From: Candidatus Thorarchaeota archaeon
GTDB lineage: Archaea; Asgardarchaeota; Thorarchaeia; Thorarchaeales; Thorarchaeaceae
Length of the DNA stretch: 32,000 nt
Direction: 5' to 3'
Assembly: GCA_008080745.1 (NCBI GenBank)
Contig: SHMX01000003.1
Span: 420,001-452,000 of the forward strand
Part shown: positions 3,587 to 15,760 of the stretch, piece by piece
How the letters are laid out: every line of letters starts with the position of its first letter
How positions within the stretch are numbered: the first letter of the stretch is position 1
The notes under the pieces: generated by a model
Seen by the model: only the letters and a program-made list of their open reading frames with translations
Told to the model about the DNA's origin: nothing
The model's database searches: none
Program-made: the position numbers and the translations under genes

Positions 3587-4636
3587 ATGAGAAGAGAGAT
3601 ATTCATTATGGGTATTCTTTTTACAATGTGTTTTGCGATGGTTCTGATCACTCCATCGCCAGTTGCAGCAACAGATCCACCAGGTGTAGGAAATACACCA
3701 GTGGATGTAACAACTTTATCAAGTTGGGATTATGGTATTCATAAAATTTATGAGGATTACACTTACTTCAGGATGTACTCATATTATGGAATATTCACTG
3801 AAACCTCATTTCAACATGAGGTGTTTTTAGGAGGACCAACCTTTACTTCGCTGAAATCTACCCATCCATATGTGAAATCACAATCCCTTACAGTCCAGAG
3901 GATACTGTGTTATGTGCCCATGTTTTCGTTAGAGAGTGAAAATTGGTACTCTCACACCTTAGAAATTGACTCAAGTTTTCAAGAAACATTAGAATTCGAA
4001 TTGAGTGCAGGAATTGATATTGATGATGGTACTTGTAAAATATGGGGTGGAGGATCTATTGCCACAACAACAACATCTGGTTTTGGATGGAGTGTCACAG
4101 CTGAAAATGGTCAAACAAGGATAATCTATGTGAGGTCTATATTCCTCAGAGTTTTTGGTTCAGTAACATATGATCTTGGCTCCAAAGGAACTGAAACACA
4201 TACATATGATGTCACAATTCTTCAAGAATGTGATCTGAATAACATCGTAGTTAGAGACCTTAGTTCAACCTACAACAAGCTTCCTGTGGGAGAAAAAACC
4301 TACTATGATTCTGCAAATGATGGTGACTCTCAACCAGACCTATATTATGGTATGGGAAACAAATGGGTATCATATGAAGAAGCATCTTCAGTGAGTTTAT
4401 TTGTAGGGTTAGAATTCAAAATTGGAGATGAAGATTTTGCATTTTTTGGAGAAGCAAAGTTCACTTGGACCAATTCCCAGTTCATTTCTATAAAACATAT
4501 ATTTGATGAAAAAATTGAAGATGCGTTTTCATATTACTACATATATCAGAACAATTTCTTCAATGTTAACATTGAGCCATTTTATACTGGTTCGGGCGGA
4601 GGTTCAGGCACCGGTCCAGTCTTGACACCCTGGTAG
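3587..4636 (+). CDS. Secreted beta-rich protein with two amphipathic beta-hairpins (possible beta-pore-forming family)
   Basis: 349 aa. Signal peptide ending PSPVAA/T; Ser/Thr/Tyr-rich; AGGAG SD at 3571-3575. The CDS is secure; the function is inferred only. Confidence 0.7.
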   Translation: MRREIFIMGILFTMCFAMVLITPSPVAATDPPGVGNTPVDVTTLSSWDYGIHKIYEDYTYFRMYSYYGIFTETSFQHEVFLGGPTFTSLKSTHPYVKSQSLTVQRILCYVPMFSLESENWYSHTLEIDSSFQETLEFELSAGIDIDDGTCKIWGGGSIATTTTSGFGWSVTAENGQTRIIYVRSIFLRVFGSVTYDLGSKGTETHTYDVTILQECDLNNIVVRDLSSTYNKLPVGEKTYYDSANDGDSQPDLYYGMGNKWVSYEEASSVSLFVGLEFKIGDEDFAFFGEAKFTWTNSQFISIKHIFDEKIEDAFSYYYIYQNNFFNVNIEPFYTGSGGGSGTGPVLTPW

Positions 4637-4875
4637 AATAGATATCAGGCAAATCAAGTACTTGAACGAATCTCGAAGGGTTGCAAACAGCTGGAAAAAA
4701 GTTGGATATTGTTGGACAAAAAAGATAGGAGCTTGTATAGGGTGATACAGGATGAAGTACTGGTTGCAAGACATAGTATCCCTGACCATCACAGAGTCTG
4801 GCTCAGTACCGTTACCTGGGACACCAACGCTCTGATGTCCAAGATTGTCCATAAAACAATGAATGGCAAGAATGT

Positions 4876-4920
4876 AAACACACCTGTTGAGAATGGGTGT
4901 GTTTCTTTATTTTATTTCTT
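4876..4920 (+). terminator. Hairpin plus T-tract, putative intrinsic terminator
   Basis: AAACACACC (4876-4884) / GGTGTGTTT (4896-4904) perfect 9-bp inverted repeat followed by CTTTATTTTATTTCTT. Confidence 0.55.
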
Positions 4921-5145
4921 CAGAAGAGTATTAAAGAATCATTAGTTTCTGAATCAGCCTATCCCAACAAAAACATTCATCATATCTTCTAAAACGTTAG
5001 AAATTTTGAGTAAAGAATTGACTCGATTAACGATTCTGTATCTACCTCTCATCAAATGAGAAGTAGATTTTGTGATAGATGAACAGAAATTACAAACTCA
5101 ATAAAGATAAGTCATGTTTTATACTTTAAAACAATCTCTATTGAG

Positions 5146-6060
5146 ATGAAAGATATGAACGAGTTTGATGAAATGCTCCTCTTAGCAGCAGAAACAGGAC
5201 AAGCAGGAGTGATTGAGATTGCGTTGATGGAAGGTGCCTCATTGGACGTAACTGATGAATTCTTCAAAAATACTGCATTACATATTGCAGCGAGTAAGGG
5301 ATACTTAGACGTTGTAAAGGTGTTAGTAGAAAAGGGAGCTAAAATTCTGGTAAAAAATGGTACTGATTTCACACCAATTCATTTAGCGGCTAGAGACGGT
5401 CACACTGAGATCGTGAGGTTTCTTCTTAAACAGGTCGACAAGATAGAGAGTCGTATACTCATGGATATCATTAATGTAGCACAGATGTCGTATACAGGAA
5501 AACCTGAGATAGTGGAGATGCTTTACAAATATAGAGCATATGTTGCAGAGCCTTCAATATCTGATCTGAGTGATGTGGATACGGAATTGCTATTAGCCTC
5601 CTATTCGGGAGATGTAGCAAAGGTAAAGACATCACTGAATAATGGAGCAAACATTGAGGTTGTATGTGGTCGAGGTATGACTCCTTTGATTTGGGCGTCA
5701 CTACGTGGGAAAATCGAGGTCGTCAAAGAGCTTGTTAAACAGGGTGCAGATATTAACTCTACAAATCGTGCTGGATGGACACCGCTCTTTCAAGCATCTG
5801 CCTGGGGACATCTAGATCTGGTGAAATTCCTTCTTGAAAACAATGCGGACCCAAACATGAAGACAGAATATTCCGAGACTGCAATGATGTTTGCTGCACG
5901 AGAGGGGTACATTGAGATAGTGATGGCCCTTCTGGAGGCTGGAGCAGACCCACATATCGCAATGGAATGTGACGATGAAGAGAATGGAAGAACCGCTCTC
6001 ATTTGGGCAAGAATCAAAGGTCATTCAGAAATCGTAGAATTGTTAGAGGAAAGGAGTTAA
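5146..6060 (+). CDS. Ankyrin-repeat protein (about 9 repeats in two blocks)
   Basis: Canonical repeats TALHIAASKGYLDVVKVLVEKGA, TPIHLAARDGHTEIVRFLL, TPLIWASLRGKIEVVKELVKQGADIN, TPLFQASAWGHLDLVKFLLENNADPN. Confidence 0.95.
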   Translation: MKDMNEFDEMLLLAAETGQAGVIEIALMEGASLDVTDEFFKNTALHIAASKGYLDVVKVLVEKGAKILVKNGTDFTPIHLAARDGHTEIVRFLLKQVDKIESRILMDIINVAQMSYTGKPEIVEMLYKYRAYVAEPSISDLSDVDTELLLASYSGDVAKVKTSLNNGANIEVVCGRGMTPLIWASLRGKIEVVKELVKQGADINSTNRAGWTPLFQASAWGHLDLVKFLLENNADPNMKTEYSETAMMFAAREGYIEIVMALLEAGADPHIAMECDDEENGRTALIWARIKGHSEIVELLEERS

Positions 6061-6070
6061 AAAAAAGAAC

Positions 6071-6637
6071 CTATTCATCAGAATCATATTCTTGAGAGAA
6101 GGTTTCAGCAATCCATTCTCTTGGGTCTTGTGCTTCTTTAGGACGGGCTCCTTCAGTTGGGTCAGATTCTCTTCTTTCTTTCATCTTTTTAGACAGGTCT
6201 CTTTTTCTGATAACTACTCCATCCTTGAGTTCCAGCTCAAATACTGTTTCAAAAGCCATTGCACGTTGAAAGCCCATATGGACATACATTCCCGAAATCA
6301 TGTCTTTTCCCAACATGAGCGTACCTGTGAAGGGAACTCTCATATTCAAATGATATACATAATCAAAGAAACTGTATTCATCTTTCTCTGTTGACGGTTC
6401 GACACCATTTACGACTTTAGCTTCTTTAAGGTTAATATGAAGCTTTGAGAGAAGTAGTATATTCTCTCGAATGTCATATGTTAGAACAAAACCACGCCAA
6501 CAGGCAGTACAACTTGAATAGGGTCTCAAATCAAAATCTGCGGGATCAAATAATCCTTCACCATTAATCCCAACCAGAGCATATTCAACTCCATCTAGAA
6601 GAAATGTATCAGCAATCTGACCGGTCATATCATTCAA
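6071..6637 (-). CDS. Hypothetical protein
   Basis: 188 aa ORF with protein-like composition (STCWRG-like SCTACWRGF motif). GGTGA SD at about 6646-6650 before the TTG; alternative ATG start at 6628. Confidence 0.7.
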   Translation of the reverse strand: MNDMTGQIADTFLLDGVEYALVGINGEGLFDPADFDLRPYSSCTACWRGFVLTYDIRENILLLSKLHINLKEAKVVNGVEPSTEKDEYSFFDYVYHLNMRVPFTGTLMLGKDMISGMYVHMGFQRAMAFETVFELELKDGVVIRKRDLSKKMKERRESDPTEGARPKEAQDPREWIAETFSQEYDSDE

Positions 6638-6685
6638 CTAGTGATATCACCAAACTGTTTTTAATTTTTTTAGAGAATACTAAAA

Positions 6686-8836
6686 TCAGTTCTTAGGTAT
6701 TATTAGTTTGAAGACTGTATCTTTTCCAGATTCCAGACTGATTTCCCACCCATGAGCTGCGGCAATCTTTAGTATTATCTGAAATCCTTTACCTCGCCCA
6801 TGTTTACAGGAATACCCCTTATGTAATAAGACAGCCTGAATCTCTTGAGGGATAGGTGTACCATCATTCTTGAAGATAAGTTCATATTGATAAGGGGCAT
6901 CTACGACGCGAATTTCGATTGAATTAGGTGAGCCATGTTCTACCGCGTTTAGTAACATGTTATGAACCAGCTGAACCATCCGCTCTCGGTCACATGAAAT
7001 GGTAGGAAGGTCATCTCGTTCAAATAGAATATTTTTTGGAATTATATTGGATGAGATAGAATCGATAATTTCATTCAAATCCACCTCTGTTTTATTTCCA
7101 ATTACCGCTCCAGCATCTGCCAGCTCTACAGACTTGTCCAGAATGCGAAGAGCATCATAGGATAGTGTTTCGATTCTATCAAGATATTCCTCGTCATATT
7201 CACCCTTGAGAAGTTGAGTCAGACCAACGATATTGCTAAAATAACCTCGAATATCATGTGCAATCATATGTGCAAAATCCCCAAGCTCCTCACGTTGTGC
7301 CCGAATACTGTGTTCAATTTCTTTTCGTTCCGTAATATCTTGAGCAAAACCAATGCTTCGAATTACGGTCCCCTCATCGTTTCTAACATGAAATCCACGA
7401 GCATGAATCCATCTCACTGTGCCAGATTTGATTATACGAAATTCTGTATCATATTTTTTGTCGTCTTCAAAATGTCTTCGTATCTCCAGCAAAATTCTCT
7501 CTCGATCATCAGGATGAATCACATTTAGGAATGTAGTATCATCTGTTTTTGCAGTTTCAGAATCAATTCCGAAAATCCTTTCAAATCCTGGACTCAGATA
7601 GATAGTATCGAAAGGGGGATTTAACTCGGTAATCCAGAATGCCTCATCAATATTATCAGCAAATTGTGTAAACCAGCTTTCAGTTTTCTGCAAGGAGTCT
7701 AGTAGTCTCTTTCGATCAGTGATATCCAATTGGGCTGCAAGGATTGCTGGTTGACCATCAAACGTAGTCATTGTGACTCTGACGTCCATCCATCTCACTT
7801 GTTCTCGACTATTAATCAAGCGATACTGATATCGTTCGGGTACTGAAAGGCCTTTGTTTCGTTTCTCCAATTGTTCTACGAGTCGTTCCCGGTCCTCAGA
7901 ATGGATTGATTCTAGCATCTTTTTCCGGTCCAGTTCAAGCAAGTCATTCACTGAACAAGCCATAATCTCAGCCATAGCTTTGTTAGCGTATAGAACCTTC
8001 ATATCGTTTATAGAAAAGATTATGATACCTTGAAGTGAATCATCGATAATTTGCTGATATTTTGTATCGCTTCTCTTGAGTTTCTGTTGAGATTCTTTCC
8101 ATTCTGTGATATCTTGAACAATACCCAAGATGCTTTTTTCATCTCCATGAAGAGATAATGTGAGTGAATACCATCTTGTGCCCTCCTCTATTTCTAGCTC
8201 ATATTCTAGGTATCGTTGTTGTCCATCCTCCCGTACTTTTTTCTGAGCTTCAAGGAACATAGATTGAACAGGTTCTGGTGTGACCTCACTTACGTGTTTG
8301 CCAAGGAATTCTTCAGGAGGGAGTAGAGGAGAAATTTTAGGAGAATCATAGAACTCTATGTAATTGTCGTTTTCATCTATGATAAACACCATTGCATCAA
8401 TCACCTCTGCAAGCTGTTTATACCGCTGTTGAGAAAGAATGAGATCCTGAAGTGCACGAGTATATTCAGCGGAATTGATGATAATATGTGCTAATTCAGC
8501 ATATTGAACAGCAGGATCACCTTCTTTCTTAACATACTGGGTCGCACCTAAGTTGAGAGCCTTGATAGCTACCTCCTCACGTGACATTCCAGTAAACACT
8601 ATTATTGGGAGAATCTCATTTTTCTCACGTAAAATACGTAATAAGTCAAGTCCATTCATTGGGCTCATCTCATAATCTGTGACCAGCACATCGAAATCCA
8701 TTGTATCAATAACCTCAATGGCTTTCTCTGCAGAATCTACGGTGGTCACTTCCAGCTCAGCGTGTTTTTGCAAGAATCGCCTAGCAATAACTAGTGTATC
8801 GGGATCATCATCAACAAAAAGCACCTGCAGGACCAT
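6686..8836 (-). CDS. Hybrid sensor histidine kinase REC-PAS-PAS-PAS-HisKA-HATPase
   Basis: REC (VLFVDDD, VLVTDYEMSPMNG, KK), three PAS/PAC units (IVQDITEWK, QLDITDRK, FAQDITERK), H-box AHDIR, N-box NMLLNAVEH, KNDG and GRGKGF boxes. Confidence 0.93.
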   Translation of the reverse strand: MVLQVLFVDDDPDTLVIARRFLQKHAELEVTTVDSAEKAIEVIDTMDFDVLVTDYEMSPMNGLDLLRILREKNEILPIIVFTGMSREEVAIKALNLGATQYVKKEGDPAVQYAELAHIIINSAEYTRALQDLILSQQRYKQLAEVIDAMVFIIDENDNYIEFYDSPKISPLLPPEEFLGKHVSEVTPEPVQSMFLEAQKKVREDGQQRYLEYELEIEEGTRWYSLTLSLHGDEKSILGIVQDITEWKESQQKLKRSDTKYQQIIDDSLQGIIIFSINDMKVLYANKAMAEIMACSVNDLLELDRKKMLESIHSEDRERLVEQLEKRNKGLSVPERYQYRLINSREQVRWMDVRVTMTTFDGQPAILAAQLDITDRKRLLDSLQKTESWFTQFADNIDEAFWITELNPPFDTIYLSPGFERIFGIDSETAKTDDTTFLNVIHPDDRERILLEIRRHFEDDKKYDTEFRIIKSGTVRWIHARGFHVRNDEGTVIRSIGFAQDITERKEIEHSIRAQREELGDFAHMIAHDIRGYFSNIVGLTQLLKGEYDEEYLDRIETLSYDALRILDKSVELADAGAVIGNKTEVDLNEIIDSISSNIIPKNILFERDDLPTISCDRERMVQLVHNMLLNAVEHGSPNSIEIRVVDAPYQYELIFKNDGTPIPQEIQAVLLHKGYSCKHGRGKGFQIILKIAAAHGWEISLESGKDTVFKLIIPKN

Positions 8837-8957
8837 TACAATTCGCCCACTATATTTTATTTCAAAAATTTTTAATTCAGTTAATGCTACCTTTAGAGAT
8901 ATATAGTTATTAGCTGATTATATTTAGAATATAGTTGAGTAGAAGGTGAAAAATGCT

Positions 8958-9380
8958 ATGCCATTTTTTGAAAGTAGCGAACAATTACAAGATGTATTTC
9001 GAGAATTTTGGTCACGAGTGCAACTGGAAGATGAGGTAATGGAGAGGTTGGCCAAGTCAGGAATCATCGTTCGATTCGATATAGAACAGCCAGAAGTTCA
9101 TGTCACTATTGATTTCAAAAATACAGGACCCGATGGGAAATTGGGTAATTTGAGCTTCGATTCTGATGTTGAACCAGATATAGCTGTATGGAGTACATCC
9201 GAGACCACAAACAAGTTTTGGCAAGGAAAGCTAAATACTACCATCGCCATGGCAAAGCGTCAGGTAAAGATGGATGGTTCTATTCCGAAAGCTATGGGGC
9301 TCTTATCAAAGATTAAACCACTATTCAAGATCTTCCCACAGGTCCTGAAGGATCAAGGTCTTGATCATATGGTGCTATAG
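8958..9380 (+). CDS. SCP2 (sterol carrier protein 2) domain lipid-binding protein
   Basis: PDIAVWSTSETTNKFWQGKLNTTIAMAKRQVKMDGSIPKAM matches the SCP2 consensus (G.l....A...G.lk..G). AGGTGA SD at 8944-8949 supports the ATG at 8958. Confidence 0.85.
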   Translation: MPFFESSEQLQDVFREFWSRVQLEDEVMERLAKSGIIVRFDIEQPEVHVTIDFKNTGPDGKLGNLSFDSDVEPDIAVWSTSETTNKFWQGKLNTTIAMAKRQVKMDGSIPKAMGLLSKIKPLFKIFPQVLKDQGLDHMVL

Positions 9381-10681: not shown

Positions 10682-12649
10682 TTATCTCTTTCTACTTACC
10701 ATAAAGACATCAGAACGTGGGACAAATGCACCTTTTAGAAACCTACGAAGAAGTTCGATCATTGCCCCACGTCGTATTCCTTGTTCCTTAGCAAATGTTG
10801 TAACTGGTATAGCCCCGGATTCTTCGGTCATCTCATGCAATTTGAGTATCCAGTCACGTGTAACAATCACCCCCGCTTTTGCAACAAATACATCCTCATC
10901 ATCAAGCCGAGTTCTTATTCGACTGGATAGGTCTGAATAATCTACTCTTAGACGTCTTGAAGTAATCATGAGGTCATAGCTGCCTTTAGTATCCAGGGCC
11001 CATCTCATCAGACTGAAGATAGTATCAATAGAGATTAGGGTACCGGTTGTACTTACTAAGGCATCCAGTGAAAGACTACTGATAATCTGGCGTACATCCG
11101 AAGGATCGAGCATTCTTTCTCTGGCTTCTTTCCCCGGGTCCAAGACACCTTTTGCTGTAAAGATTTGTTTGAGTTCACGTTTTAGTTTGGATACGGGAAC
11201 CAGTCCACCATTGGAATTCATGACAGCATCAGAATCAATCTGAGCTAATAGAGCCTGAGCAATACCGACCGTTATATTGTATTTCTCAACTAGAGTAGTA
11301 GGGTCGACCGACTCACCAGAATCTAATGAACATGTAATCTTCGTTCTTGCCCAAGAGATTGAAAGGTGGTCTCCCGATTTGTTGGATACCGTTCTCATTC
11401 CAAATTCCTTGAGTAGAATATTTAGAGTAGGATTAGTTATACCCCATTCATCCTCAACGGAATCTATAGATATTATTCCATCCTCAGATATTTCATCTAG
11501 TAGCCAACGGCGGAATACTGCTGTTGATATGTATTTTCCACGTCCGATAGTTCTGGCATTTTCATTATTGCGAAGAATAGTTTCTACGATTCTTGCATCA
11601 ATACCTAGATTGTCAGCTTCTTGGTGTACTTCTATTCTTCCTGTAAGGGTCAGATTATCTAATACGCGTTCTTTTAGATAATCGTAAGTCACGATAATTC
11701 CATCATCATCTACAAAGAATTTCTTTCCTGTCCTTCGAACAATTTTCATGAGTGCATCTTGATCTATACACAGTTGTTTTGCCTCGGTAACGGGATTCAG
11801 ATAACCCTCTGATTCAAGAAGGCATTCCAAACGATTAGCGACAATATGAACAGGAAGTAGTCTATGATCTGTTGTCTGTATAACAGACCAACCAAACCTC
11901 CTCATTGCCTCTATGATATCACGTTCGGTAACAGCCAATCTCATTGCCTCCATACTAGGCTCAATAAACCCACTTTTTTCCATTGAACGTTCTAATGTGC
12001 TCCTTAGCCAATCAGTAGAAACAAGAAATCCATTCCCCATTTCGATAAGATTCCAACCCCATCTCTCAACCAAACGAACAAGATCGAAACGCTTTACATG
12101 AAGACGCTGAGCCTCTGAAGTGACATTGATTCGTCCTTGAAGACCAATGACTTCTCTCATGCGCTCCTTAAATTCAGGTACCAATATGTAATCGCCATCT
12201 TCGGTCTGAACAACATCTAAACCCTCTCGGTTTGTGATGACCGCCACTAAATTTTCTATGATAACTTCAGAGATGTCCCACATTGCAGATTCTTTTGCAA
12301 CATGAATTACATGATTATCTACAAGGAGATTATGAAGACGTCTAATAAGCAAGGTTGACGATACTACAGAAGATTTGCTAAAACTCAGTATTGCATTTTC
12401 TGCGTGTCGTGCTGTGTAGATAACAGAGAGAATAGATATGTCCTTTCTGTCAAGTCTAGAGGTGAGTTCGGATACGGATAATGTCATATTAGTAGTTAGT
12501 AACTGCTCCAGCTTTCTGATACGTCGATTTCTTATCCTCTGAATCCAGAAGAAAACACCACCAATAAGGATAAGAAAAAGAATTGCTGCTAGTACAAGGG
12601 ATAGGATAACATCATTACCCAGTATCTGCACTAGCATCTTTCTATCCAA
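10682..12649 (-). CDS. Single-pass membrane protein with about 11 tandem ~55-aa winged-helix-like repeats (UFL1/DDRGK1-like)
   Basis: N-terminal TM (VILSLVLAAILFLILIGGVFFWI) followed by a basic stretch, then recurring G-h-h-x-h-xx-ea-xx-l-x-h...G-x-h-h units. TTG start at 12649 abuts the ATPase stop; alternative ATG at 12637. Confidence 0.7.
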   Translation of the reverse strand: MDRKMLVQILGNDVILSLVLAAILFLILIGGVFFWIQRIRNRRIRKLEQLLTTNMTLSVSELTSRLDRKDISILSVIYTARHAENAILSFSKSSVVSSTLLIRRLHNLLVDNHVIHVAKESAMWDISEVIIENLVAVITNREGLDVVQTEDGDYILVPEFKERMREVIGLQGRINVTSEAQRLHVKRFDLVRLVERWGWNLIEMGNGFLVSTDWLRSTLERSMEKSGFIEPSMEAMRLAVTERDIIEAMRRFGWSVIQTTDHRLLPVHIVANRLECLLESEGYLNPVTEAKQLCIDQDALMKIVRRTGKKFFVDDDGIIVTYDYLKERVLDNLTLTGRIEVHQEADNLGIDARIVETILRNNENARTIGRGKYISTAVFRRWLLDEISEDGIISIDSVEDEWGITNPTLNILLKEFGMRTVSNKSGDHLSISWARTKITCSLDSGESVDPTTLVEKYNITVGIAQALLAQIDSDAVMNSNGGLVPVSKLKRELKQIFTAKGVLDPGKEARERMLDPSDVRQIISSLSLDALVSTTGTLISIDTIFSLMRWALDTKGSYDLMITSRRLRVDYSDLSSRIRTRLDDEDVFVAKAGVIVTRDWILKLHEMTEESGAIPVTTFAKEQGIRRGAMIELLRRFLKGAFVPRSDVFMVSRKR

Positions 12650-15577
12650 CTACAAGGTTTCTCCTTTATCTCTCAGACTCTTTTTGTACAGTTCTAGACC
12701 AACAATGGTTGGGGCTGCAAATAGAATACATATGAGCCAATCCATCCAGCTCAAAGGTATGAAGTAAAAGTGCAGTCCAAATGGAGCAAGTATGGCTTGT
12801 GCGATTGGAACATACATGAGTAATAGATGAGCTAGATAGATGAGTCCAAGCAATATGACATAGCGAATGATTCCAGGTTCCAGAATTCCCTTTGTAACTG
12901 GCATATTGATTCTTCTGATTAGAAGAACGAGAGAGCTCTCCAGTAGCAAAATGACAGTCAGTAACATGGTCCGAGCCTTTGCAAATGGGTCGATTTCCAT
13001 AAATGGTTGATTATTGATTGGATTTATCGCTTCGTGATAGAAACCACCATAATTGTCAATATTCATTGGAATAATTTGCCAAAGTGTCATGGTAAATAAT
13101 GCAGCTGCACCAATAACCATTAGAACAACGTTCAATGTCATAAATTTAGCTATCGGGCGAGTAATGATCTCTTGGCTATCACGCGGTTTCTCTTCCATGG
13201 CTCGTGGTGATGTCTTATCAAAGACCAATGCCAAACCAGGGAAGGAATGGGTGGTAACGACAAGATACAGGCTCTGCCATTGAGAGAGAAAGTTAATGAT
13301 GTCCGGCATCAGGAACATAGCACCGAAGAAGATAATACTCTCAAACAGATTAATAGCGATATAGAAGTATATCATCATTCTAATTTTATTGAAAAGTCCT
13401 CGGCCTTGATGAACACCAGTCACAATTGATGCAAAACTATCATCGGTAATAACCAGGTCAGCAGCTTCCTTAGCAACATCTGTACCAGTTATACCCATGG
13501 CAATTCCTGCATCACTCATGGCCAAGGCAAGAGCGTCATTTACTCCATCACCAGTCATTGCAACAACTTTTCCATCGTCTTGGTATCGTTCTACAATGAC
13601 CTGTTTGTGTTCAGGGTTAACTCTAGCAAAAACATTGACACGGAGGAAATTATCATTACTAAGAGATTCTATCTCTCCTCCTTCAATAGCTAAAGAGTCC
13701 GGTCCGTAGATGTTGAGATTACGAGCAATTGTTTTTGCTGTGGCTGCTGCGTCCCCTGTAATCATAATAACATTGATACCAGCACTGTGACAGGCGTTTA
13801 CAGCCTCTTTTACACCATCACGTGGTGGATCAACAATACAAGTAAAACCAAGATATACAAGATTGGATTCAACATCATCACGGTTTGTATCACTGCTGGC
13901 AGAGTTCATCTCCTTCTTAGCAAGAGAAATAACTCGATATCCCTCTTCAGCATATTTGGTTGTAATTTCTCTGATTTTTTCAATATCTGCCTGAGACATT
14001 TTTCGTTCGTTAGCGTTCCCTCCAATTTTGGTGCATCTTGGCAGCAAGACTTCGGTCGCACCCTTAACAAATGCGACATATTTGCCATCTGCCTCACACA
14101 CTTTGGACATACGTTTGAGTTCTGATTCGAACGGATACTCCGCAATGATTTTGTATTTCTCTTTTACCTCAGCTTCGTCAATTCCGCTTTTTCTGAAAAA
14201 GGTGAGTAGTGCAGCGTCCGTTGGATCTCCAAGGGGCTTCCAATCGATTCCTTGACCAGGTAGTTCCTTCTTTACTATCTCAGCATCATTATTGACACCC
14301 GCACATAATAGCATCTGATAGAGGCCTTTCCAAGCATATACATCACTTACAAGTACTGAGTCTGCTTCGCTAGGATTTTTCATGAATGATTCATCTTTCA
14401 TCCTATACAATTCACCTTCAGGGACGTATCCTGCACCAGATATTGTATAGAGATTTTCAGAATCCCAAGCGATGGTGACGGTCATTTGATTCCGGGTCAT
14501 GGTACCCGTCTTATCACTACAAATAATGCTTACACGACCTAAACTCTCAACAGCTGAGAGATCACGAATAATGACTCCTTTCTTAGCCATTGCAAGCACT
14601 CCAGTAAGAAGAACAATGGTGGTAAGCAAAGGAATATTGATGGGCATGATAGTCATAGCTTTTGTAATCCCAGATGTCAATGCTGCAGTCAATGATGGTG
14701 CTTCAAGTCCGGGATATATGAAAGGTGCAATAATCAAGACCCATAGCACTGATGTAGCCATTAAGCCAATCGAGGCAATTCCCAAAAATTTCGCTAGAAG
14801 GTTTACCTTCTTCCGTAATGGAATATCACCTGTGTTCAATGACTCTAGAGTACCTTGGATTTTACCAATCTCTGTATGCCCACCGGTTGTGGTTGCGACT
14901 GCTTTTGCAGTACCAGTAGCTACATAGGTGCCAAAGAAGACCATATTGCGCATATCAGTAAGAGGGACATCCTCTGATACTTTTACATCGCTATTTTTGG
15001 TAACAGGAACACTTTCTCCTGTTAGAGAAGCCTCATTTGCTGTGAAATTAGAACATTGAATAATTCTTCCATCAACAGGAATCTTATCACCCTGCTCTAA
15101 AATGAGAATATCACCAGGGACAATTTCATGTGGTTCAATCTTCATCTGATGCCCGTCACGGATGACTCTCGATTCGCCTGCAGAAAGTTTCTCCAACGCC
15201 TCAAGTTTCTTTTGTGCTCGAAATTGTTGAAAGATTGCAACAATGCAGTTGACTCCAACGACAGCCAGCCATACAGCTGCTTGAGCAAGCTGATTGCTTT
15301 CAGTTGGTGGAGCTGTAACAGCGAGGATAATCAAAGCTATAGAGCTTAAAAGATAGATATTGATAAGCCAATTCAGAATTGGAGCAAGGTACACCTTCCA
15401 AAAAGATCCCTTAATTTTAGGAATGATATTTGGACCATACTCTTTTTGCCGGTCCTTCACTTGTTGTGCAGAGAGTCCAGTATTAGGATCGGTGTCTAAT
15501 TTTCGAAAAGTTTCATCGAGACTAAGAGCATGGAATTCTTCGCCATGACTGTTGGTGGATTTTTCCTCAGTAATCAT
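12650..15577 (-). CDS. P-type ATPase, P2A (SERCA/PMR1)-like scaffold with a non-canonical transport site
   Basis: LTGES, CSDKTGT, KGATE, DPPR, MITGD, FARVNPEHK and MTGDGVNDA motifs; about 10 TMs. GAGGGA SD supports the ATG at 15577 (the ORF extends to 15616). Substrate uncertain. Confidence 0.93.
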   Translation of the reverse strand: MITEEKSTNSHGEEFHALSLDETFRKLDTDPNTGLSAQQVKDRQKEYGPNIIPKIKGSFWKVYLAPILNWLINIYLLSSIALIILAVTAPPTESNQLAQAAVWLAVVGVNCIVAIFQQFRAQKKLEALEKLSAGESRVIRDGHQMKIEPHEIVPGDILILEQGDKIPVDGRIIQCSNFTANEASLTGESVPVTKNSDVKVSEDVPLTDMRNMVFFGTYVATGTAKAVATTTGGHTEIGKIQGTLESLNTGDIPLRKKVNLLAKFLGIASIGLMATSVLWVLIIAPFIYPGLEAPSLTAALTSGITKAMTIMPINIPLLTTIVLLTGVLAMAKKGVIIRDLSAVESLGRVSIICSDKTGTMTRNQMTVTIAWDSENLYTISGAGYVPEGELYRMKDESFMKNPSEADSVLVSDVYAWKGLYQMLLCAGVNNDAEIVKKELPGQGIDWKPLGDPTDAALLTFFRKSGIDEAEVKEKYKIIAEYPFESELKRMSKVCEADGKYVAFVKGATEVLLPRCTKIGGNANERKMSQADIEKIREITTKYAEEGYRVISLAKKEMNSASSDTNRDDVESNLVYLGFTCIVDPPRDGVKEAVNACHSAGINVIMITGDAAATAKTIARNLNIYGPDSLAIEGGEIESLSNDNFLRVNVFARVNPEHKQVIVERYQDDGKVVAMTGDGVNDALALAMSDAGIAMGITGTDVAKEAADLVITDDSFASIVTGVHQGRGLFNKIRMMIYFYIAINLFESIIFFGAMFLMPDIINFLSQWQSLYLVVTTHSFPGLALVFDKTSPRAMEEKPRDSQEIITRPIAKFMTLNVVLMVIGAAALFTMTLWQIIPMNIDNYGGFYHEAINPINNQPFMEIDPFAKARTMLLTVILLLESSLVLLIRRINMPVTKGILEPGIIRYVILLGLIYLAHLLLMYVPIAQAILAPFGLHFYFIPLSWMDWLICILFAAPTIVGLELYKKSLRDKGETL

Positions 15578-15760
15578 CGCTGTCCCTCTTGGAGTGTGAA
15601 TATTGGATATAATCACAGCAGATAAATGAAATTGTAATCAACTGATAAGTGTGCATTTCGTATCCGATAGAGAATGCTGCACCTTTTGAGTCTTTTCAGC
15701 TTGTTTCGATAAGTTCATGTAAGTTCTTTACCTGAGTGTTTCAAGATTGAGGTAAAACCA

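Follow-up and report, generated by a model that had tools for sequence, protein, structure and literature searches.

A 32,000-nucleotide stretch of a Candidatus Thorarchaeota archaeon contig (SHMX01000003.1, positions 420,001 to 452,000, assembly GCA_008080745.1; hereafter the window) encodes a P-type ATPase of 975 amino acids at 12650-15577 on the minus strand. The class and the substrate of such pumps are predicted from a few residues in transmembrane helices M4, M5, M6 and M8, and at this locus those residues raise the question of what the protein transports. The set found here (Ile and Asn in M4, His in place of the universal M6 Asp, and both glutamates of ion site I) matches no characterised class. 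The original prediction described a SERCA-like pump whose Ca2+ site II is erased and suggested that the substrate might not be an ion. It left out the main point, namely that site I is not lost and is rebuilt into a conserved polar cluster. We propose that the protein is an active P-type ATPase of a distinct, old and Asgard-centred subfamily, and that it probably works as a one-site small-cation pump with this rebuilt site.

The coding sequence is one uninterrupted open reading frame from an ATG to a TAG stop at 12650-12652. An alternative in-frame GTG at 15616 would add 13 residues; the ATG is favoured because close homologues are 970-980 residues long and their alignments begin at about residue 5-15. 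A Shine-Dalgarno-like GAGGG lies 8 nucleotides upstream of the ATG. The Pfam domains comprise the full P2-type set (Cation_ATPase_N, E1-E2_ATPase, Cation_ATPase, Hydrolase and Cation_ATPase_C). Motif coordinates, all on the minus strand, were checked by translating the window sequence, and the P2-like catalytic machinery described in the original prediction was found intact, motif by motif: the dephosphorylation motif TGES of the A domain (residues 186-189, 15011-15022), the phosphorylation motif DKTGT with D355 (14501-14515), KGA (14057-14065), TGD (13751-13759) and the P-domain motif GDGVND (13535-13552), together with an intact DPPR. All catalytic residues, including G187 and E188 of TGES, are invariant in an alignment of 100 sequences. 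These motifs, the A, P and N domains with the membrane domain, and a score of 269 bits on TIGR01494 (cut-off 62) place the protein within the P-type superfamily.

Site I of SERCA consists of N768, E771, T799, D800 and E908, and site II of E309, N796, D800 and M4 backbone carbonyls. We mapped these positions through HMMER alignments to Listeria LMCA1 and the non-gastric H,K-ATPase. The M4 motif PINIP (P312-P316, 14630-14644) puts Ile313 at the E309 position and Asn314 at the G310 position. In M6, VVTTH (13247-13261) carries Val773 at the N796 position, Thr776 at that of T799 and His777 at that of D800. The N768 and E771 equivalents are kept as N743 and E746 in the M5 motif INLFES (13337-13354), and E880 in the M8 motif LLLES (12935-12949) shares an alignment column with the Glu or Gln of canonical pumps at the SERCA E908 position. 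The substitutions, the retained residues and the motif coordinates given in the original prediction are therefore borne out, and site II is erased by Ile313, Val773 and His777.

These changes are shared by a whole family. PINIP was present in all 120 full-length close homologues, which come from metagenome-assembled genomes labelled Thor-, Loki- or Promethearchaeota and read IMPINIPLL throughout (63-85% identity); M6 reads TTH(S/T)FPGLAL in this set, and TTHSFPGLAL in all bar small variants. A wider search, exhaustive over 1.84 billion representatives, recovered about 40 clusters at 50% identity that belong to the family, down to about 36% identity to the query. The motifs common to these clusters are M4 P-[IVFWL]-N-[ILF]-[PVI], M5 N..E, the M6 His and the M8 Glu; beyond them the match list turns abruptly to PEGLP with N-L-x-T-D. 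Conservation was counted in 31 family representatives at 50% identity or less and compared with 58 canonical relatives. His777 is present in 30 of the representatives (Asp in 56 of the 58 relatives) and Asn314 in 28 (Gly in 55 of the 58), E746 is found in all 31, E880 in 29 and N743 in 27, and the second M4 proline is retained in 26. The only conserved buried polar residues among the representatives are N314, N743, E746, H777 and E880, plus T320 and T325. Other positions specific to the family are Tyr63 and Pro66 in M1, Gln118 in M2, Arg348, Ile252, which replaces the Thr of the TPLQ motif, and Leu683, which directly follows GDGVND (GDGVNDAL) where other P-type ATPases have AP. The substitutions are thus not unique to this sequence, and degeneration is excluded because they are common to the 120 close homologues and the about 40 clusters. 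This pattern indicates that the family is under purifying selection and that the gene should be regarded neither as broken nor as an assembly error.

The fold and the profile scores relate the protein to P2 pumps without assigning it to any P2 subtype. An AlphaFold2 model built from a 100-sequence alignment (predicted local distance difference test 90.6, predicted template modelling score 0.86) has P2 topology. P2 pumps account for all of its 50 best PDB matches in Foldseek: SPCA1 in E2P states, LMCA1, SERCA and the Na,K- and H,K-ATPases, with template modelling scores (TM-scores) of up to 0.81 for the SPCA1 E2P states and with SERCA2b and LMCA1 also among the best. In sequence searches against the PDB, residues 725-975 alone gave no match at an E-value of 1e-5, and residues 690-975 gave M5/M6 alignments only. 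NCBIfam models rank the protein highest on P2A-PMR1 (471 bits), followed by P2B (415), P2D (411), P2A-SERCA (400), P2C (370), P3A (319), P3B (304), P5 (232) and P4 (104). No subtype model reaches its curated cut-off; the scores are 471 versus 798 bits for TIGR01522, 400 versus 703 for TIGR01116 and 415 versus 507 for P2B.

Phylogenetic trees, which covered P1B, P2 and P3 sequences only, set the family apart. In the first tree, rooted on the P1B pumps of the host, 43 canonical relatives form one clade (SH-like approximate likelihood-ratio test, SH-aLRT, 95) opposite the 34 family sequences. The second tree was computed under LG+C20+F+G4 with added Halobacteriota sequences, comprising six P3A and five P3B pumps, all over their cut-offs, and four P2C-like pumps. 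In it the family is monophyletic (SH-aLRT 100) on a stem of length 0.43 and falls inside the P2 group (SH-aLRT 85), where it forms a polytomy with the P2C-like pumps and the canonical groups, while P3A and P3B group together apart from it (SH-aLRT 98). A tree constrained to unite the family with P3A was not rejected by an approximately unbiased (AU) test (log-likelihood difference 20.1, p 0.244). The trees rooted on P1B, the Cation_ATPase_N and Cation_ATPase_C domains and the helices of the model place the protein in the P2/P3 ten-helix group, and the family is a separate lineage of the P2/P3 supergroup. The P2 derivation advanced in the original prediction stands as the probable placement, with a P3A sister relationship not rejected. 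The protein shows every mark of this unnamed Asgard PxNxP/His subfamily: P-x-N-x-P in M4, N..E in M5, His in M6, Glu in M8, GDGVNDAL, and a place in the monophyletic group. The four Halobacteriota P2C-like pumps (L097-L100; G897, G803, G921 and G847) read PEGLL in M4 and DLGTD in M6. On the Na,K/H,K model they reach 674-747 bits, short of its 946-bit cut-off, and they are equivalent to the methanogen Na,K-ATPase-like genes that Palmgren 2023 (PMC10654040) discusses.

The family is widespread in the Asgard phylum. About 290 of 400 species genomes carry a member (best match E below 1e-185, taken as the mark of family membership). The best E-values across the 400 are bimodal: in the other genomes they stay between 1e-103 and 1e-158, where the canonical paralogues score. 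Members are entirely lacking from several Asgard families with small genomes among the 400. Named members come from Thor-, Loki-, Hel-, Odin- and Promethearchaeota, plus one metagenome-assembled genome labelled Korarchaeota. At a threshold of 1e-165, which could miss the most divergent members, even samples of other phyla gave a member in one of 401 Thermoproteota genomes and in none of 401 Halobacteriota genomes. The Thermoproteota member (L090, G475:C27:3429-5846), at 42% identity, has PINIP and the M6 His and contains a masked run in frame; horizontal transfer or mis-binning may account for its presence.

The host genome (3.16 Mb, 98% complete) encodes six P-type ATPases: the PINIP pump, three canonical pumps (PEGMP or PEGLP with NLVTD, NLATD or NVVTD) and two P1B pumps (CPC and CPH). 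The PINIP pump is therefore an additional, specialised paralogue. The family occurs in most Asgard archaea beside ordinary Ca2+-type pumps, and this co-residence points to a need in ion (or other) homeostasis specific to the closest prokaryotic relatives of eukaryotes. Tandem same-strand paralogues of the family occur in one large Asgard family (12 loci; L027-L034 and L039-L042) and in genome G397 (L037; G397:C86:1226-4129 and 4610-7486). Each pair combines a PINIP type with a PINLP or PFNLP type, and the Asn/Glu/His set is intact in both copies; the pairs could reflect subfunctionalisation or a hetero-oligomer. The longer members P0129, P0130 and P0099 have internal insertions or a duplication only and no added domain. 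DNA of the host was found in two marine-sediment DNA sequencing runs only, probably the source of the assembly, and no RNA run is listed.

How might the rebuilt site work? As a one-site cation pump, the protein would run a conventional ATP-driven E1/E2 cycle on the P2/P3 ten-helix scaffold. Hydrophobic residues replace ligands of site II (E309 to Ile313 and N796 to Val773), those of site I persist (N743, E746, T776 and E880), and two family-specific residues join them: Asn314, in the unwound stretch of M4, and His777, which takes the place of the shared Asp800. The conserved polar cluster E746, E880, N743, N314 and H777 resembles a small-cation site. By homology to SERCA site I, these two Glu, two Asn and one His would line a single pocket, through which one small inorganic cation would be moved per cycle, presumably in the direction of export from the cytoplasm. 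His777 may act as a ligand, as a built-in counter-ion that pairs with the glutamates after the ion has left, or as both.

Precedents exist for both roles of the His. Built-in positive charges that lower the stoichiometry are known in P2C pumps. Lys791 of the H,K-ATPase is one such built-in charge, and two of the PDB entries matched (7efn and 8k1l) point by title to such a charge in P2C sites. A transmembrane His next to a Glu serves as ligand or internal counter-ion in the P1B-4 metal pumps of the sCoaT/PfeT type (Palmgren 2023, PMC10654040). These pumps differ from the family in their eight-helix architecture and SPC motif; they are unrelated to it at the subfamily level, and the P1B pumps of the host form the outgroup of the trees. 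The best tentative guess for the substrate is a borderline divalent metal (Mn2+, Fe2+, Co2+, Ni2+ or Zn2+), favoured because Ca2+, Mg2+, Na+ and K+ sites do not typically use imidazole as a ligand; a divalent transition metal is also a plausible substrate in sediment archaea. H+ or Na+ has a lesser chance of being the substrate, and Ca2+ or Mg2+ a smaller one again. Identification of the substrate would add a new specificity class, correct hundreds of annotations and test a transmembrane His as ligand or built-in counter-ion on a P2 scaffold.

Several observations weigh against the proposed one-site cation pump. The ATPase has no metal-binding domain at its N or C terminus, no metal-responsive regulator or informative partner is conserved in 24 loci, and the host genome already has a CDF exporter. 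Residues of the entry path are altered as well, the M2 Glu to Gln118 and the M1 Gln to Pro66. Moreover, a His acting purely as counter-ion and filling site I could leave no obvious ion site, which would favour another substrate or path. The metal transporters of the host are too weak a guide either way on a role in metal transport: a genome search found the one CDF protein, no VIT1 and no NRAMP.

Among the alternatives, the one that survives best, although we consider it unlikely, is a pump for protons or monovalent cations (H+, Na+ or K+/NH4+) of P3A- or P2D-like character, in which E746, H777 and E880 would form a protonatable or ion-binding centre with a stoichiometry of one. P3A H+-ATPases (archaeal MJ1226-type, AHA2 and Pma1) likewise have a single transport centre and a hydrophobic residue at the E309 position, reading IPAALP or IPVALP in the six archaeal P3A pumps over the TIGR01647 cut-off. 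This also removes a premise of the original prediction, which had taken Ile at this position as the hallmark of P4 flippases. Only two carboxylates are left in the site, a further feature in keeping with proton or Na+ transport, and the AU result permits a common clade with P3A. The unconstrained tree, however, joins P3A to P3B and the family to the P2 group. TIGR01647 scores the family protein lower (169 and 155 bits) than its canonical paralogues (289 and 192 bits), and the P3A score of 319 bits lies below the 615-bit cut-off. P3A pumps keep the M6 Asp (the AHA2 D684 equivalent), where the family has His, and they lack the M5 and M8 glutamates. By general coordination chemistry, His is not a usual ligand of Na+ or K+.

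It is doubtful that the protein has remained a Ca2+ (or Ca2+/Mn2+) ATPase with a single Ca2+ bound at the modified site I, despite the close likeness to such pumps. The top sequence and fold matches are Ca2+ pumps, and the family keeps the equivalents of N768, E771, T799 and E908. Public records name the family Ca2+ or cation ATPases, homologues in JGI and NCBI being labelled, for instance, 'Ca2+-transporting ATPase', and putative Ca2+ ATPases are listed in the Asgard transportome paper (PMC7997004). Our literature search turned up no account of the family; it is missing from the FUPA and Asgard transportome papers, and a search for 'PINIP' yields nothing relevant.

Comparison with individual Ca2+ pumps brings out where the family departs from them. 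LMCA1, the one-site P2A pump of Listeria (PDB 6zhf and 6zhh), gives the best sequence match (E 1e-125, about 30% identity) and ranks among the top fold matches, with the same ten-helix P2 architecture and catalytic motifs. It keeps the M4 Glu and the M6 Asn/Asp (PEAL and NLVND) and uses site II, whereas the family has erased site II and keeps a His-modified site I. The P2A pump SPCA1/PMR1 (Ca2+/Mn2+; PDB 8iwt, 8iws and 7yam) provides the best NCBIfam model and TM-scores of 0.72-0.81, but uses the site-II Glu and Asp that are absent here, and the TIGR01522 score is far below the cut-off. SERCA1a/2 aligns over the full length in a single alignment (E 1e-100); its E309, N796 and D800 are Ile, Val and His in the family. 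D800 is a ligand of both Ca2+ ions in SERCA, and the His at its position is nearly universal in the family. With hydrophobic residues at the E309 and N796 positions (PINIP and VVTTH), the P2A ligand set is incomplete. The protein falls below every Ca2+-ATPase equivalog cut-off, and the host has three canonical Ca2+-type pumps besides.

The non-ion substrate suggested in the original prediction brings in P4 flippases and P5 ATPases, which share with the family uncertain or non-ion substrates and, in the P4 motif PISL, an Ile after the M4 proline. Neither class is supported as an assignment. For a P4 flippase, the protein has TGES instead of DGET at residues 186-189, P-x-N-x-P rather than PISL, and 104 versus 431 bits on TIGR01652. 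Cdc50/Lem3 (PF03381) gave no match in the host genome, but the control genomes were equally empty. For a P5 ATPase, M4 reads MPINIP rather than PP(E/A)LP, extra N-terminal helices are absent, and TIGR01657 gives 232 versus 618 bits.

A P2-scaffold pump re-purposed for a lipid, a polyamine or other organic cation, or a peptide or helix, with the hydrophobic former site II as part of a larger cavity, is in our estimate improbable. Such a change would accommodate the conversion of three polar site-II positions to Ile, Val and Val and the family-specific changes of the M1/M2 entry path, and a membrane-anchored winged-helix-repeat gene follows the pump in some Thorarchaeia, as a lineage-restricted neighbour. 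One specific version, to which we give an equally slim chance, would have the PxNxP/His pumps bind an organic cation, a polyamine or a lipid head-group through the hydrophobic former site II and the Glu/His residues, with the abutting UFL1-like winged-helix-repeat protein as partner in some Thorarchaeia. Nothing positive in the sequence points to a lipid, polyamine or helix substrate. The N terminus is a P2-type Cation_ATPase_N domain, the second M4 proline is kept with no PP doublet, the P4 and P5 scores are the lowest of all classes compared, none of the 50 best fold matches is a P4 or P5 structure, and a conserved, buried cluster of two Glu, two Asn and one His is characteristic of ion sites. 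Of the original proposal, the changed specificity and the P2-like scaffold remain fair readings of the conserved changes, and the pointer to flippases and P5 ATPases is not supported. If it did prove true, a non-ion substrate would mean that, in the archaea most closely related to eukaryotes, a prokaryotic cation-pump scaffold had been captured for such a role.

It is very improbable that the protein is a relic or a regulatory ATPase that transports nothing, its old site filled by the glutamates and a protonated His777. Such a protein might account for the loss of site II and for a His that could neutralise site I, but the catalytic and coupling residues are strictly conserved across a family diverged to about 36% identity, some three-quarters of the Asgard genomes (about 290 of 400) carry a member, and tandem duplicates both keep the site.

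The one-site cation pump thus remains the preferred reading, and the surrounding genes give little clue to its ion. The TAG of the ATPase abuts the TTG start at 12649 (or lies near an ATG at 12637) of a gene for a 655-residue protein (10682-12649, minus strand) with one N-terminal transmembrane helix, about ten winged-helix-like repeats and a weak E3_UFM1_ligase Pfam match (25.7 bits). A search with this protein as query recovered the gene from 22 of 86 genomes in the taxonomic family of the host, representing nine of its 16 genera, and from none of the other genera. Wherever both coordinates are listed, it follows the pump directly and in the same orientation; in locus L009 it is missing from the interval that separates the pump from panB. 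The protein evolves fast, at 31-40% identity where the pump has 63-69%. Synteny is just as well kept for the neighbouring S8 protease, MFS, panB and SCP2 genes, so the adjacency of pump and winged-helix gene does not go beyond local synteny. The protein is a lineage-restricted neighbour rather than part of the core pump. In the 24 loci, drawn from several Asgard families, only lineage-level synteny was seen (TFIIB, GNAT, luciferase-like, DUF362, LonB, M29 peptidase and RFC), with no recurring transporter, regulator or chaperone that hints at a substrate.

Some minor features of these genes were also recorded. The extracytoplasmic L7/8 loop of the pump (residues about 833-863, window 12935-13060) exceeds that of canonical relatives in length and varies strongly; one Asn in it, N842, is conserved in 37 of 42 family sequences, with no consistent N-x-S/T sequon. 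A family pump of genome G041 (G041:C131:1762-4653) contains one in-frame TAG, and the winged-helix-repeat gene of a sister species (G336:C77:28392-30347) one in-frame TGA; in each case a sequencing error, a pseudogene or recoding is possible. Elsewhere in the window, 6686-8836 on the minus strand encodes a hybrid receiver-PAS-PAS-histidine kinase of 716 residues, and 5146-6060 on the plus strand a 304-residue protein made up almost entirely of ankyrin repeats (Ank_2, E 1.6e-55), which is eukaryote-like and typical of Asgard genomes. A small SCP2 sterol-carrier-like protein is encoded at 8946-9380 on the plus strand; in loci L009 and L011 its gene keeps its synteny with panB and the pump.

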